A DNA stretch of 64,000 bases from the IMG/VR virus record IMGVR_UViG_3300036762_000065, positions 128,001-192,000 of that record. One strand, 5' to 3'. Of the stretch, positions 34,194 through 50,054 are shown one piece after another. The notes beneath the pieces were generated by a model. The model was not told the DNA's origin, did no database searches, and saw nothing but the letters and a program-made list of their open reading frames with translations. The position numbers and the translations under genes are program-made. Source of the DNA: a virus. Taxonomy: Duplodnaviria > Caudoviricetes. The stretch's first letter is position 1, and each line of letters starts with the position of its first letter.

Positions 34194-35455
34194 GACACAC
34201 AATGAAAATAATACTAATGTTTCTAATGTTTTGTATATCTGGAGCAAGTGGTGCTTCAGAGTATAGTCGAATTGAAACAGAATACGGAACTTTCAATGTT
34301 CGTGGTAATATAAGCTTTGTTTCTTTCTACAGTCCTGACAATAAATTTAAATCTGACAGTGACTTAGAGCTAGGTGAATCGTATGCCGGTCTAAATATAG
34401 ATTTTATTGCACAACAGTATATAACGGTTAGGTCATATATTACAACAGATGGTTTGAATTACGGATTTTTCGAACTGTCGGATTCTTATGACACTACAAC
34501 TTTAAGCTTACGTGCAGGACGAGTTAATAGACTTAGCACTTTCTTCAGCGGTATGGGCCCTCATGCAGACAACATGAACTTCTTACCTCAAGGAACCACT
34601 ACGAATAGGACAGGAATAGCAATATTCAGATTCGACGGCATACAGTTGGCATTCAACACTTTCTTCTGGAAGAAACACAACCTATCTGTAGAACTATCTT
34701 ACGGAAAGATACTACTTGACCAAGACGATAGTGGAGGACTTAGCGGTTATTCTGTTCATGCGTTGTTCGATCCTACGAGAGTAAACTTTGAAAGCTTACA
34801 TAACGATATGTACGTACCTTCAATAGACATAAGGTATAGTTATGAAAACTTCCAATTGTTTGCAGATATGTTTATTGCAAATCACACAAAAGGAAATCTA
34901 GTAATAGACTATGACATAGACAATTCCATACTTGAATATCAGCTCGGTCTACCTCCAGGTACACTACCTCCAGGAACAACTCCTATAGAGCAACCTGTAC
35001 AAGTAGGATATAGAGACAGTTACGAAAATAATCTGATGGATATAGGAATGGGTTATTCGTTCGATGCTTTTGAGTTACTGTTTATGGGATTCCAAAAATA
35101 TTCAAAAGTAGGTGCTAAGGAAGCTGTTCCTGGAACTTTCATAGACTACGGTATTACTTTGATGGTAAGAGGCAATATAGCAATCTCTACATTAATGTAC
35201 GGAGGATTCACAGGGTATAATGAAGATAATGGACAGGAATTCTTAGCTAAGAGCGGTATAGTTGCTCCTGATTGGGTAGGAGAAGGTAGAGGCATATTTG
35301 TAGGTACTTCTCATGACTTTAATGAACGGTTCCGTATAATAGGAGAAGTTCAGTTTAACAAAGGTGGAAGTTTCTTACATGCGACGTATCAAGACCCTCT
35401 AACTTCAAAAGAGTACTGGAATGTTATTAGCTTTTCAGCACATTACTTTTTCTAG
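34190..35455 (+). CDS. Outer-membrane beta-barrel (porin-like) protein
   Basis: Signal peptide, amphipathic strands, LRAGR and FDG motifs, C-terminal Phe beta-signal (SFSAHYFF). Confidence 0.7.
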   Translation: MRHTMKIILMFLMFCISGASGASEYSRIETEYGTFNVRGNISFVSFYSPDNKFKSDSDLELGESYAGLNIDFIAQQYITVRSYITTDGLNYGFFELSDSYDTTTLSLRAGRVNRLSTFFSGMGPHADNMNFLPQGTTTNRTGIAIFRFDGIQLAFNTFFWKKHNLSVELSYGKILLDQDDSGGLSGYSVHALFDPTRVNFESLHNDMYVPSIDIRYSYENFQLFADMFIANHTKGNLVIDYDIDNSILEYQLGLPPGTLPPGTTPIEQPVQVGYRDSYENNLMDIGMGYSFDAFELLFMGFQKYSKVGAKEAVPGTFIDYGITLMVRGNIAISTLMYGGFTGYNEDNGQEFLAKSGIVAPDWVGEGRGIFVGTSHDFNERFRIIGEVQFNKGGSFLHATYQDPLTSKEYWNVISFSAHYFF

Positions 35456-37309: not shown

Positions 37310-37522
37310 GTGTGTATGAATCATAACAATCAATACAATATGCTTGAGAAAAAGGAAATAAATAAGAAAAAGGAAGCTGCACTTATACAGGCTCAGGTAG
37401 AAAAGTTTTTAGCAACAGGCGGCTCTATAGTAGAAGTTGCAGCAGCCTCTAACGTAGAAGAGGTTAAAGCAAGCGTGTTGCAAGCGCTAAGGAAGCAAGA
37501 GCTTAATTATGAACACCTGTAA
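37310..37522 (+). CDS. Small protein resembling the SutA RNA-polymerase-binding helix
   Basis: K.KE...I..QVEKFLA.GGSI.EV resembles the SutA core as recalled (KQKERDALAKAMEEFLSRGGKVQEI). Confidence 0.55.
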   Translation: MCMNHNNQYNMLEKKEINKKKEAALIQAQVEKFLATGGSIVEVAAASNVEEVKASVLQALRKQELNYEHL

Positions 37523-38345: not shown

Positions 38346-38663
38346 TTGAGAACTATGAAGAGTGAAGGTGTCGTAGATAATGACGAGAAACGACTGGATG
38401 AAGGCAAGTCCGTTCAAGATCGACTTGTTATGCGCGGTAATTGGATTGCCGCAGAAGACAAGTTGCCACCACCCGAAACACCCGTGTTAGCTTTTGTACA
38501 TGGCATAGACATACCCATAGTTTTAGAAATGAGATGGGAAACCTGCAACCCAATGGTTGAACCATATTTTAATGATTTTCTTTATTGGGATAACCCTCAT
38601 GACGATGGGCAAAATTATGAAGACAGGGTATTTGCATGGCAACCACTACCAGAAGACCCTTGA
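38346..38663 (+). CDS. DUF551-like phage protein (domain begins at Met 38430)
   Basis: WI...D.LP.....VL...V.AWQPLPE.P signature. Confidence 0.75.
   Translation: MRTMKSEGVVDNDEKRLDEGKSVQDRLVMRGNWIAAEDKLPPPETPVLAFVHGIDIPIVLEMRWETCNPMVEPYFNDFLYWDNPHDDGQNYEDRVFAWQPLPEDP
38375..38435 (+). repeat. Degenerate attC-like site A
   Basis: Right arm GTCCGTT...TTGTTATGCGC matches sites B-D; left arm (AGATAAT) eroded. Confidence 0.45.
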
Positions 38664-38664
38664 T

Positions 38665-38716
38665 ACACATAACCACAAGCACAACGGCTAGTCCGTTGAT
38701 GAGTAGGGTTAAGTGT
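38665..38716 (+). repeat. attC-like site B
   Basis: ACATAAC-CACAA-GCACAACGG-CTAGT-CCGTTGATGA-GTAGG-GTTAAGT imperfect hairpin just after the stop at 38663. Confidence 0.65.
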
Positions 38717-38996
38717 AAGTTTTGGAAGGTAGGCTTAGAAGCAGCCATCCTTTAAAGAGTGGGGTCTTTGCTCCTTGTGACATGTAACTACCTGGAGCGT
38801 TTTTGTAAGGTAGTGAAAGTTGAACCAACCGCTGACTTTGATCAGAGTTATGTTGGGTAGACAAGTTGCGTGGAGGATAACGCCAAAGAGCTAGTAAGAA
38901 CCTGTGAAATGACATGGGCATAGCGTGAGTTGGAGCGGTAAAAGTCGTACCCAACCTAACAGTCCCTTTAGCGTAACAGCACACCAGAACTTACAC
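38713..38996 (+). ncRNA. Structured RNA mimicking 23S rRNA H43-H44 (L11-binding GTPase centre) with a 210-nt insert
   Basis: GGCTTAGAAGCAGCCATCCTTTAAAGAGT...GCGTAACAGCACACCAG; 13-bp closing stem 38713-38725/38984-38996; compensatory pairs; no credible ORF. Confidence 0.8.
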
Positions 38997-39018
38997 CTAA
39001 TTTAACTAGGAGATAGCC

Positions 39019-39216
39019 ATGTTTTCAGAAGACGATTTGATTAATGTATGCGTCTACCCAGACGGTACACAAAGCCACAAGCCCCTGCCAGAGAAAGGGG
39101 ATGATTATGAATGGAGGCGCACCATTTACTGTGCGAGGTGCAACTCAGTATTGAGATTGCACCCCGAAGAGCCATTCGCTTCATGTGGATGCGGCACAAC
39201 GGAGTGGTACAAATGA
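39019..39216 (+). CDS. Small zinc-ribbon protein
   Basis: AGGAG RBS; CARC...CGCG. Confidence 0.7.
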   Translation: MFSEDDLINVCVYPDGTQSHKPLPEKGDDYEWRRTIYCARCNSVLRLHPEEPFASCGCGTTEWYK

Positions 39217-42011: not shown

Positions 42012-42233
42012 ATGAACTTTCTAAGTCTATTGATAATAGTAAACCTAGTACTGCTAACTATTTTAATCGGTTTTTACATACTACCATTTAGACCTATTAA
42101 CGTCAAGCATAAAAGGAGACCTAGAGAAGATTGTGAGGATTGTTTAGGTACAGGAGTTATTAATAAAAACGATATGTTGTGGGAAGCGGAATGCCCTTGT
42201 AGATTAAAAACTCCTACGAAAAGTGAACATTAA
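42012..42233 (+). CDS. Membrane-anchored small Zn-finger protein
   Basis: N-terminal TM; CEDCLGTG...CPC. Confidence 0.65.
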   Translation: MNFLSLLIIVNLVLLTILIGFYILPFRPINVKHKRRPREDCEDCLGTGVINKNDMLWEAECPCRLKTPTKSEH

Positions 42234-47398: not shown

Positions 47399-47920
47399 CT
47401 ATACCCAATTAGGGCCGTTATAAGCTTCTAGCTGGGTGATGTTGTATGTCATTACTGTAGTTATATCAGACCTACGCACACCTTCAATATGTCCGTACAT
47501 TACTTTCAATGCGGCCTTGGCGGCGTCATACTGTGCAACTACTAAAGCAGCTAGGTATTCCACGGTCTCGCCTGTGTGCGAAGTCTCTGCATTCATTATA
47601 GGTGTCGGTGTAGAATTCAGAACGAGGTAGGCAGAAGCCTCTGTATACTTCTCCTCGTATGTTCTTATTTGTTCTGAATCTTCTGTACCTAAAACTGCAT
47701 AGTAGCGACTAAGGCGTTCGCTATTTGCCTCATCTCGAATTTTATTCGTAATGAGTTTCCTATAGTATGTTAGCCTATCTGCCTCAAGCGTAATTTCATC
47801 CACTGAATCACCGACTTCCCAAACTATGGACGCGTAAGATTCAGGATCAGTAGAACTAACCTGCTTGTCAGGGTACATAGCACCAATTACAGATATTAAT
47901 GATGGTTTTTCTACATACAT
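47399..47920 (-). CDS. Putative tail fibre assembly chaperone
   Basis: TY..K..EA..Y......TP...AE....G....LA..V......IEG.R pattern. Confidence 0.65.
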   Translation of the reverse strand: MYVEKPSLISVIGAMYPDKQVSSTDPESYASIVWEVGDSVDEITLEADRLTYYRKLITNKIRDEANSERLSRYYAVLGTEDSEQIRTYEEKYTEASAYLVLNSTPTPIMNAETSHTGETVEYLAALVVAQYDAAKAALKVMYGHIEGVRRSDITTVMTYNITQLEAYNGPNWV

Positions 47921-49422
47921 TATACATACACCTCCTGAATTAGGATAGAATTGGACTTACTGATTGCTCCACCCCATCCGCCTTGTGTTGTACGCGCACA
48001 TATCCAATAATCATTATTAGGACCTGAGAACGATCCGCATCTAATGGAATAGGTATGTGACGCTGTGTCTCCTGGAGCGTCCAAAATATCTGCTACCAAT
48101 GACGCATTCTTTATTGGATCGGAGCTCTCTCTTGAACTATATATAGAGCCGCCTATTAGTAAACTATCTCTAAACACTGCGTAACCAAAGCCGGATTGCT
48201 TTTTCTCGTAAGAAGCCATGTGTAAGGTAATTTGCAATCTCAGCTTACTATCGGCTTTTTCTAGTGCAATATTTTTAGAGTAGACTTCTGTACCGTTTGA
48301 TATTGTAGGAGGTGTATCATCAGGTAAATAAGAAGTTCCCCAACGTTCTGCAATATTCTCAATACTAAAATTAGATGTACTAAGGCCCTCTTTACCACCA
48401 CTAGACTCTTTGTTTTTCCAAACACCAGACTCTAGTGTAAGTACATCGCCTTCTTGGGAGTTTGTCAGTGTTACATCAGACAAACCGTTTAACGTAGTTA
48501 TACCGCTACTTGGTCCAGTAGGTCCTATGTCACCTTTCGGTCCTTGAGGACCTGTTGGGCCTGTAATAGATGTACCGTCGTTGCCTTGTGGACCTGTAGG
48601 CCCGATAGCTCCAGTAGGTCCGGGTAATCCCACAGGCCCTATAATACCTTTAGTAACAAACCACGCACTGACTTGTGCTCCTGAAGCACCACCTCCGCTA
48701 CTGACAGTACGGAAATTTAATAAGCTCCCTGCACTAACAACAAGCTTGTTTATATCGTCTTGCGGAAAAGTCTGAATACCGTTACCGGAAGAAGCAACAA
48801 CAGACTTAGAAACAGGAGAAGTGTTTATAAGTAACTCTACTTCGGGGTTTCCGAAGTTAGTGCTTAAGGTCATTGCGTATAAGACACAATCTATAGGAAC
48901 GTATATACCTTGTGCGGCAGGAGCCTTGTCAGATGCACCAAACGACCACTGCATTGCGTTAGCGGAAAGAGCACCTGAACACTCAGCAACAACATTAAAG
49001 AAGCCTCCGCCTCCGGCATCTGCGAAAGTGATGTTTCCTACACCATCGGTTATCATAACCTGTCCACTTTGTCCATCACTAGGAGGCAAAGTAAGTCCTT
49101 GTATCTTGACAGTACCTGTTTCTTTGTTTGTTTCTAATATGGTAGTGCCTTCTGCATTCTTCGCTATAACATTATTCGTAACGACACTAGAAGCTCTTAA
49201 AAATCTACCGCTTAAAAAATCTACTGCATCTGTGCTACTTAAATCAGCCGTACCATCATTTAAAACAATTGAACCTGAATTTAGAGCAGTTATTAAGTCT
49301 GCGCTGCGAGCCAGTAACGATAGAGGTAGATGGTCAAACGATTCCGTTGTATTAGCAGGAATAGAATCTCCAAAAGAAAATTCGAGTTTGGTTTCTGTTA
49401 TATTTTTTAGATTAATAGACAT
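47920..49422 (-). CDS. Tail fibre protein with collagen segment
   Basis: DG..GQV..TDG.G, Gly-X-Y run, L..LSDV motifs; TAATG-coupled start at 49422. Confidence 0.8.
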   Translation of the reverse strand: MSINLKNITETKLEFSFGDSIPANTTESFDHLPLSLLARSADLITALNSGSIVLNDGTADLSSTDAVDFLSGRFLRASSVVTNNVIAKNAEGTTILETNKETGTVKIQGLTLPPSDGQSGQVMITDGVGNITFADAGGGGFFNVVAECSGALSANAMQWSFGASDKAPAAQGIYVPIDCVLYAMTLSTNFGNPEVELLINTSPVSKSVVASSGNGIQTFPQDDINKLVVSAGSLLNFRTVSSGGGASGAQVSAWFVTKGIIGPVGLPGPTGAIGPTGPQGNDGTSITGPTGPQGPKGDIGPTGPSSGITTLNGLSDVTLTNSQEGDVLTLESGVWKNKESSGGKEGLSTSNFSIENIAERWGTSYLPDDTPPTISNGTEVYSKNIALEKADSKLRLQITLHMASYEKKQSGFGYAVFRDSLLIGGSIYSSRESSDPIKNASLVADILDAPGDTASHTYSIRCGSFSGPNNDYWICARTTQGGWGGAISKSNSILIQEVYV

Positions 49423-50054
49423 TACGCTCTCCACCTAACCATCAAACAAACAGTAACTTCTGCCATATTAGAATTACCTATAGTGCGGCGGCCGCGTGTT
49501 TGTAGTAAGTCACCTTCATTAAAATCTAAATCTAAGTTAACATTATATACTTGTACAGGATTGTTAGAGCCTACTGCAACCATAGATACGAGATTTTGAT
49601 GCTGTACATTGTCTATATAACAATCTACTTCTATTGTTGTAGCATCGCCTCCATTCTGTGCTTGTGCTGTTATACCTACAATTGTTCCGCCATACGGAGC
49701 AATGTATCCTGCTGCTGCCCCTACGTTAGAGCCTACTCCAAACCAAGTATCGCTTTTTGCTTGTATATGATTGTAAGTGTACGGAAATACAGTACCGCTG
49801 AGTGTTTTTCCGCGAGTAGGGTCTTCATACATAGGCATTGTTTGGCTTGAACCGCCTACATTAACCAGAGAGGCTACGCCTACAGACTGCCACTCAGTAT
49901 TTATAAATAAGTACAGACCGTCTTCAATAGTCGCGTGACCTTTAAGTACAAACAACTCTCCTTCTTGAGGAATAGGAAACACGCTGCCCATAGGGCAACC
50001 TAGGTTTTCTATACTACTGCCATCAACTAGAGTAAGCTTGCCGTTAACTTTCAT
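49422..50054 (-). CDS. Fibre-associated structural protein
   Basis: N-terminus similar to 9528..10097. Confidence 0.65.
   Translation of the reverse strand: MKVNGKLTLVDGSSIENLGCPMGSVFPIPQEGELFVLKGHATIEDGLYLFINTEWQSVGVASLVNVGGSSQTMPMYEDPTRGKTLSGTVFPYTYNHIQAKSDTWFGVGSNVGAAAGYIAPYGGTIVGITAQAQNGGDATTIEVDCYIDNVQHQNLVSMVAVGSNNPVQVYNVNLDLDFNEGDLLQTRGRRTIGNSNMAEVTVCLMVRWRA

Follow-up and report, generated by a model that had tools for sequence, protein, structure and literature searches.

A free-standing phage RNA that replicates the GTPase-associated centre of 23S rRNA

Results

The element and its resemblance to 23S rRNA

The window analysed here is a 64,000-nucleotide stretch (positions 128,001 to 192,000) of the IMG/VR virus record IMGVR_UViG_3300036762_000065, assigned to the Caudoviricetes. 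Positions 38713–38996 of its + strand (284 bases) hold an element that resembles the 58-nt uL11-binding domain of 23S rRNA, also called the GTPase-associated centre (GAC), and both the coordinates and the letters given for it in an earlier note agreed with the sequence on re-reading. The element lies in a block of + strand genes, with the gene for a DUF551 protein upstream (38346–38663) and a 65-codon open reading frame (ORF) downstream (39019–39216). When two of its parts, 38721–38760 and 38971–38988, are joined, they align without a gap to the GAC domain of the E. coli 23S gene used as reference (L156), 45 of the 58 positions being identical, so the rRNA match first proposed is upheld. E. 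coli positions follow the conventional numbering, and the annotated gene start in L156 agrees with it within 2 nt.

Read from the 5' end, the element begins with one strand of a closing stem (38713–38725), which is equivalent to the top of helix 42 (H42) and whose final five nucleotides correspond to rRNA 1051–1055; it pairs with its complement at the 3' end of the element (38984–38996) through 13 pairs, including one G-U. Next comes the H43 hairpin with the 1067 loop (38727–38751, rRNA 1057–1081), which is the part matched by the large-subunit (LSU) rRNA model and differs from E. coli only at 1058, 1061, and 1080. It is followed at 38752–38760 by the junction 1082–1086, with its U-A pair, and by the 5' strand of lower H44 (G1087, A1088, G1089, and U1090). 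Between rRNA 1090 and 1091 stands a variable arm of 206 nt (38761–38966), the base helix of which, GGGG(U)/(G)UCCC, consists of covarying base pairs. These 206 nt had been treated as a spacer or gap between the two halves, a view that must be given up: they form instead a base-paired arm, and such an arm is present in every family member. A linker, UUUA here and UUUG in most members (38967–38970), then leads to the upper H44 hairpin (rRNA 1091–1100) and to A1101, C1102, and A1103, which together occupy 38971–38983 and precede the return strand of the closing stem.

The two loops that contact translation factors are preserved, as UUAGAAG (A1067 equivalent at 38737) and GUAACA (A1095 equivalent at 38975). 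U1060 and A1088 are retained as well, and the base at 1061 is A; U1061A is a stabilizing change according to PMC1802607. Three differences from E. coli had been described as compensatory. Those at 1058/1080 (U-A to G-C) and 1090/1101 (A-U to U-A) are so, whereas the double change at 1054/1105 (A-U to G-C) does not stand, because the E. coli gene has G and U at these positions and only one side differs.

No further rRNA surrounds the element. An Rfam scan at gathering thresholds gave no match in the 64,000 bases, GOLLD and ROOL included, and the element is thus not a member of an already described Rfam family. A permissive scan of 38600–39100 reported only an LSU rRNA segment (model positions 1181–1232, 22.3 bits against a gathering score of 50, E = 1.3e-4), all non-LSU matches in this interval having E > 1. 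With that score, spread over 52 model positions, and without neighbouring rRNA domains in 64 kb, the element falls outside the LSU rRNA families (RF02540/RF02541). A protein-coding reading of the element was dropped, since searches of PHROG and Pfam at E up to 0.1 gave no family for the antisense ORFs at 38709–38984 and 38569–38748.

Covariation and conservation of the structure

For the analysis of covariation, 39 of 57 elements, none longer than 215 nt, were aligned; five near-duplicates, the loci L080, L040, and L105, and ten longer elements were omitted. The structure placed on this alignment comprised the rRNA-derived helices and the arm-base helix, 26 modelled pairs altogether. Base pairing was present in 91.2% of 1003 cells, compared with 69.7% in shuffled alignments (0 of 500 shuffles reached the observed value), and the covariation score was 0.537, against 0.143 after shuffling and 0.09–0.16 when the pairing partners were slid by 1–3 columns. 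Changes on both sides were seen in 18 of the 26 pairs, among them eight of the nine closing-stem pairs, 1057/1081, 1058/1080, 1082/1086, and all five arm-base pairs; the junction positions 1082/1086 are U-A in 24 sequences, C-G in 11, and A-U in 2.

A covariance model of 182 positions (R1) was built from the same 39 sequences, with the window excluded. It nevertheless matched the window at 38710–39000 (+) with 97.7 bits (E = 5.6e-33) over model positions 1–182 of 182, the second-best match in the window having an E value of 0.22, and it found one copy in the whole virus record, which measures 241,706 bp and carries direct terminal repeats. Over 100 sources R1 gave 105 matches, a few long-armed members being split in two, and in the model-fitted alignment of 98 distinct rows 90.7% of cells were paired, with a score of 0.520. 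The minimum-energy fold of the shortest member, which is independent of R1, also gives the four helices. The window's element displays the traits of the R1 family, that is, a free-sequence stem directly below 1055/1104, an arm at 1090/1091, a UUUR linker, and G1089, U1090, and A1101. The compensatory pairs across the family, the covarying closing stem, and the retrieval of the window by an independent model bear out the proposal that the element was selected for its structure and is not rRNA debris.

To keep the scoring of conservation from being circular, the 5' half was scored on loci retrieved by a 3' pattern (72 usable of 88, with 15 skipped for insertions or deletions) and the 3' half on 19 loci retrieved by a 5' pattern. 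Invariant in the 72 loci are G1055, G1059, U1060, G1063, U1066, C1072, C1075, C1079, A1084, A1085, G1087, and A1088; in the 19 loci, the pairs G1091-C1100 and C1092-G1099 do not vary. The A1067 equivalent is A in 65 of 72 loci and the A1095 equivalent in 17 of 19, and, with the 18 compensatory pairs, this means that homologues keep both the loops and the pairing. Other positions set the family apart from E. coli, namely G1089 and U1090 (each 72/72, both partly forced by the filter) and A1101 (18/19), and U1090-A1101 makes a Watson-Crick pair immediately below the arm. The linker in the 19 loci is UUUG in 16, UUUA in 2 (the window included), and UUGG in 1. PMC1802607 places the interface of the L11 C-terminal domain on the RNA at 1058–1060, 1062–1065, 1075–1083, and 1088; each position listed there is either conserved or covarying, in the window as well as in the family, and none lies at the point where the arm is inserted. 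The loci L080, L040, and L105 carry an extra hairpin in the 3' strand of H43, after a GCAGCCA motif, which constitutes a second tolerated expansion point.

A large family in phage and viral sequences

In a blastn search against 50,697 phage records the H43 half alone of the element was matched, in 8 records that represent six distinct phages (Pseudomonas phages pf16, UNO-G1W1, Milchi, and Astolliot, Aeromonas phage 4_4572, and Xanthomonas phage XacN1), and a query widened to 18 kb around the element brought no further match. The loci in the six phages follow a common plan of free-sequence stem, H43 half, insert, H44 half, and return strand. Pattern searches then extended the family: an H43-junction pattern gave 23 IMG/VR loci and an H44 pattern at least 120, with 138 loci carrying a recognizable element and 13 pattern-derived loci showing none by regular expression. 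After removal of duplicates there are at least 112 distinct elements besides that of the window, from IMG/VR contigs and cultured phages of Pseudomonas, Aeromonas, and Xanthomonas; counts given here over 112 (or 113, with the window) refer to the elements among the matches listed. A second blastn search, with a half-site, additionally returned Serratia phage BF, seven Erwinia phages, and Xanthomonas phage XbC2, and the member L050, used as a blastn query against the phage collection, had zero matches.

Among prokaryotes, represented by one genome per species for 185,579 species, the H43-junction pattern found four loci. Two of these are chance hairpins in Planococcaceae and a third is a true archaeal 23S gene (1622 bits). 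The fourth (L033) is an element, located with six tRNA genes (five by Rfam) on a 3.9-kb contig that is filed under a Thermoplasmatales metagenome-assembled genome; the contig is most likely viral, a phage fragment binned into an archaeal assembly. The family is confined to phage or viral contigs.

The literature searched yielded no account of a phage GAC mimic, nor one of a free-standing copy of a functional rRNA domain, and in the pf16 genome paper the word rRNA does not occur. A large survey of structured RNAs in viruses states that no rRNA predictions overlapped its candidate RNAs (PMC10690425). In the searchable part of the supplements to that survey the loop motif has 0 occurrences, and the family could sit elsewhere in them under an anonymous identifier. 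We conclude that the elements constitute a large phage RNA family that is undescribed in Rfam or in the literature found.

Short coding sequences annotated as hypothetical proteins cover the element in three GenBank records (L003 1572–1679, L004 1530–1661, and the Kaldavass record), those in L003 and L004 on the opposite strand; they are probably mis-annotations of the RNA gene. Directly upstream of the element in Astolliot (L005 ~1165–1500), and in the same stretch of Milchi (L004), there is an apparent second, divergent copy in which the 1067-loop and H44 hairpins are both altered and the arm is like that of the XacN1/L009/L024 type. This copy is not among the R1 matches at E up to 0.001, and it may represent a sister subfamily.

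The arm

The insert occupies the identical point, between 1090 and 1091, in all 113 sequences, and scans of the viral collection with two joined-form patterns, which differed in having the phage or the rRNA letter at 1101, returned 0 arm-less loci. Arm length ranges from 37 to 365 nt (median 128), the shortest arms being plain hairpins. By blastn the 113 arms form one cluster of 29 (the pf16 type) and ten clusters of 2–4 that hold 24 arms together, leaving 60 singletons; the arm of the window has L020 as its only cluster partner. An alignment fold of the window's arm with those of L020, L019, and L033 predicts 36 pairs, 25 of them compensatory, from four sequences only. A single module recurs in 28 of the 113 arms, in the form of a short helix, an ACC/UAAG internal loop, and a CCN-tetraloop-NGG hairpin, which is capped by GNRA or UAAC and has a variable closing pair (G-C, G-U, U-A, or A-U). 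The module lies 12 nt from the end of the arm in 25 of the 28 (e.g. L001 1630–1660), and it is lacking from the arm of the window. Its UAAG strand may resemble one strand of the 11-nt tetraloop receptor. No intron, ribozyme, or other Rfam family was matched in the arms, at E up to 10 on the 501 bases around the element and at E up to 1 on 17 loci. The idea that the pf16-type arm mimics the sarcin-ricin loop was abandoned, the letters being too variable between members. We take the arm to be an expansion or accessory domain that is retained and makes a three-way junction in H44.

Genomic context

A tRNA gene was found in the flank of 60 of the 112 listed elements, on the same strand in all 60 and within 150 nt in 53; these counts are lower bounds, because the flank inspected measured ~900 nt at most loci but ~300 nt at the last 40. 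In a typical array, a tRNA starts or ends a few nucleotides from the closing stem; in pf16 the element stands between tRNA-Asn and tRNA-Pro. In the 242-kb genome of the window's phage, on the other hand, the sole tRNA call made by ARAGORN is a tRNA-Ile(gat) of 95 nt at window positions 48958–49052 (−), which is inside a 504-codon ORF (47920–49434), 10 kb from the element and on the other strand. This call is probably false, and the window's jumbo phage seems to be without a tRNA array.

The window copy is placed among early-type genes, with those for thymidylate synthase, a Lar-like protein, an N4 gp49-like protein, and dihydrofolate reductase nearby. The 65-codon ORF downstream starts 23 nt past the element and has a ribosome-binding site, and no family was matched by its product. 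Further upstream, a 70-residue ORF (37310–37522, +) matches the SutA RNA-polymerase-binding domain at 24.0 bits, which is short of the cut-off of 29.3. In XacN1 (L006 830–1480) the element comes directly after an annotated 2'-5' RNA ligase gene and is followed by a hairpin resembling an intrinsic terminator. As for genes of the ribosomal stalk, none for uL11, uL10, or bL12 was found in the genome of the window's phage, the bL12 search giving a sub-threshold match of 12.4 bits. Across 50 element-bearing records there are three bL12-like matches (G046 131946–132035, G006 34798–34887, and G004 42119–42202), two of them above the cut-off and two at ~1.5–2.5 kb from an element (L103 and L015), which is too few for an association.

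Discussion

Our analyses indicate, with very little doubt, that the window encodes a structured, free-standing RNA of phage origin that mimics the GAC, reproducing the top of H42, H43, and H44. The conservation of the interface letters suggests that this RNA binds host uL11, which we consider more likely than not, and it may act as a decoy or titrator, a role we regard as a serious possibility while stopping short of calling it probable. The explanation as a whole, namely a phage-specific non-coding RNA that replicates the GAC and is predicted to serve as an off-ribosome decoy of the stalk base, is the one that we favour on balance.

The mechanism we propose would start with the RNA sitting in, or being cut from, a phage transcript. 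Because tRNAs abut the closing stem in the arrays, tRNA-processing enzymes that trim these neighbours may be what releases the element there. The RNA would then bind host uL11, a capacity that the rRNA domain shows in vitro when isolated; that domain folds alone and binds the C-terminal domain of L11 (PMC1802607). The uL10 site, in lower H42, is probably absent from the replica, because the closing stem has no conserved sequence. Activation of RelA requires uL11, and one way for an off-ribosome copy of the stalk base to work would be by withdrawing uL11 and so blunting this uL11-dependent activation. Alternatively, the copy could soak up a host factor or toxin that recognizes the GAC, with the arm as an accessory module in either case. 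One such toxin is known from interbacterial warfare, where, according to PMC8661411, Tre23 ADP-ribosylates H44 of the GAC (bases 1095–1098) and blocks EF-G. A decoy or scaffold for uL11/uL10, translational GTPases, RelA, or an rRNA-targeting toxin, as proposed in the earlier note, is plausible in light of the conserved interface letters and of this toxin.

Several observations weigh against this interpretation. The folding energy of the whole element is not significant on the + strand (z = −0.79, with 19 of 100 shuffles folding equally well), nor is it on the − strand (z = −1.53). The window copy lies outside any tRNA array, which leaves its release from a transcript unexplained, and its + strand flanks contain neither a sigma-70-type promoter nor a terminator. 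Its UUUA linker is the minority form, and the arm, being within H44, might in principle interfere with folding or obstruct a partner. The phage itself encodes neither uL11 nor uL10 nor bL12, so any partner must be host-derived. Finally, the nearest cultured relatives by tail protein, PaBG, Lu11, and HRDY3, gave an R1 match in 0 of 3 by the same route that detected the element in the window's virus record; the element is therefore dispensable or accessory for that phage group, the tie to which is distant (37.7% identity of the tail protein to that of the Pseudomonas jumbo phage PaBG).

The arm invites a different reading, in which the RNA is an adaptor or scaffold of a ribonucleoprotein, the GAC replica being a handle that recruits uL11, along with anything bound to uL11-GAC, and the arm the working part that tethers this complex to another molecule, in the manner of Y RNAs, where a stem that binds protein is linked to a second module. 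That the arm is obligatory, with no arm-less copy in either viral pattern scan, that its base helix covaries, and that a conserved module recurs in 28 of 113 arms, 25 times at the same 12-nt distance from the arm end, would all fit. However, 60 of the 113 arms are singletons, ranging with the others over 37–365 nt, which is better accounted for by a tolerated expansion than by a shared working part; the shortest are plain hairpins, and we consider an adaptor rather improbable.

The position of the insert also raises the possibility of a split gene, in which the 206 nt would be an intron, self-splicing or protein-dependent, and the mature RNA a contiguous GAC mini-helix of ~80 nt. Deleting the insert and the linker does restore a contiguous rRNA-like sequence, the inserts are as diverse as introns are, and the letters at the ends are like those of group I splice sites, with U before the insert in 72 of 72 loci (partly forced by the filter) and G as the last linker base in 17 of 19. 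Yet the permissive Rfam scans of 38600–39100 (E up to 10) and of 17 loci (E up to 1) gave no match to group I (RF00028) or to any other intron or ribozyme, and arms of 37–54 nt are below the size of a group I or II catalytic core, which needs more than that. Moreover, the first bases of the insert pair with its last and not with the upstream exon, and in the window the base before G1091 (38970) is A in place of the terminal G, although the U at 38760 is present. The A1101-U1090 pair just below the junction suggests that the three-way junction is kept. A search for sequencing runs that contain the stretch brought up no RNA run, and two runs of one study matched it with 0.09 each of the sampled words. 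An apparent 38761>38966 joint in metagenome contigs of other organisms was discarded, its 27-letter sides having 85% likeness and its loose ends resembling ordinary 23S; it derives from real rRNA or its relatives and is no evidence of splicing, expression, or habitat. Taken together, these points make an intron very unlikely.

Still more remote is a cis-acting leader that regulates the 65-codon ORF, even though the element ends 23 nt before this ORF, which has a ribosome-binding site, and rRNA-mimicking leaders are well established for the messenger RNAs of ribosomal proteins. In 53 of the 112 listed relatives the element has tRNA genes, not ORFs, next to it within 150 nt, no ribosomal protein gene was found in the genome of the window's phage, and no leader family of Rfam rises above noise. 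Captured rRNA debris or an assembly chimera with host rRNA, to which 41 nt identical to the pf16 copy and a stretch near-identical to real 23S might point, can be set aside with near certainty: only 58 nt are rRNA-like, with the split at an identical position in 113 of 113 sequences, the closing stem and the arm base covary, G1089, U1090, A1101, and the UUUR linker are unlike E. coli, and the element is present as one copy in a virus record with direct terminal repeats, so that the chimera foreseen as an alternative in the earlier note is refuted by the family.

Returning to the reading of the RNA as an off-ribosome replica of the GAC, we would tentatively extend it one step further. Judged from sequence, a portable copy of the stalk base loaded with uL11 could constitute a new class of trans-acting anti-host or anti-defence RNA, with the exchangeable arm as its second module. 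In this version uL11 would be stripped or titrated, which would keep RelA from raising ppGpp during infection, or a GAC-directed toxin or sensor, such as a Tre23-like ADP-ribosyltransferase, would be absorbed. If uL11 or a GAC-directed factor is bound, this would represent a new route by which phages manipulate translation, the stringent response, or abortive-infection toxins. The family would also account for the stretches without annotation that interrupt tRNA arrays in many large phages, and a GAC engineered by nature, with a site that tolerates insertions, is a possible structural and biochemical tool.

Compared with the GAC of 23S rRNA (E. coli 1051–1108), the phage element shares the helices, both loops, the 1082/1086 pair, U1060 and A1088, and the letters of the interface with the L11 C-terminal domain. 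It differs in being free-standing, with an unrelated covarying stem in place of the rest of H42, in the 37–365-nt arm and UUUR linker at 1090/1091, and in having A at 1101. The leaders of ribosomal protein genes that mimic rRNA (e.g. L10_leader in Rfam) are likewise off-ribosome RNAs imitating an rRNA protein-binding site of the stalk region; they are cis-regulatory, bacterial, located upstream of ribosomal protein genes, and only loosely like rRNA, whereas the phage element is near-identical to rRNA, occurs in phages, and is often found between tRNA genes. Non-coding RNAs near tRNA genes in phage genomes have precedents in GOLLD, ROOL, and the stable RNAs C and D of T4, all of unknown function, and to our knowledge none of these copies an rRNA domain.

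The principle of a small structured RNA that imitates another RNA to capture a protein is shared with the pseudo-ToxI of phage PhiTE, an RNA mimic (PMC3475682), and with the tRNA-like Y RNAs (PMC4201824). What is imitated there is an antitoxin RNA or a tRNA, whereas the phage element imitates an rRNA domain. The same ribosomal region appears to be targeted by phage-encoded bL12 domains, which, according to PMC6375957, keep the residues for contact with uL11 and with EF-G/EF-Tu. These domains are proteins that enter host ribosomes, whereas the phage element represents the RNA component of the site and cannot become part of a ribosome. Phages are known to carry tRNAs, a few ribosomal proteins, and RNA decoys, and a free-standing copy of a functional rRNA domain, for which the literature found offers no earlier example, would extend that repertoire.

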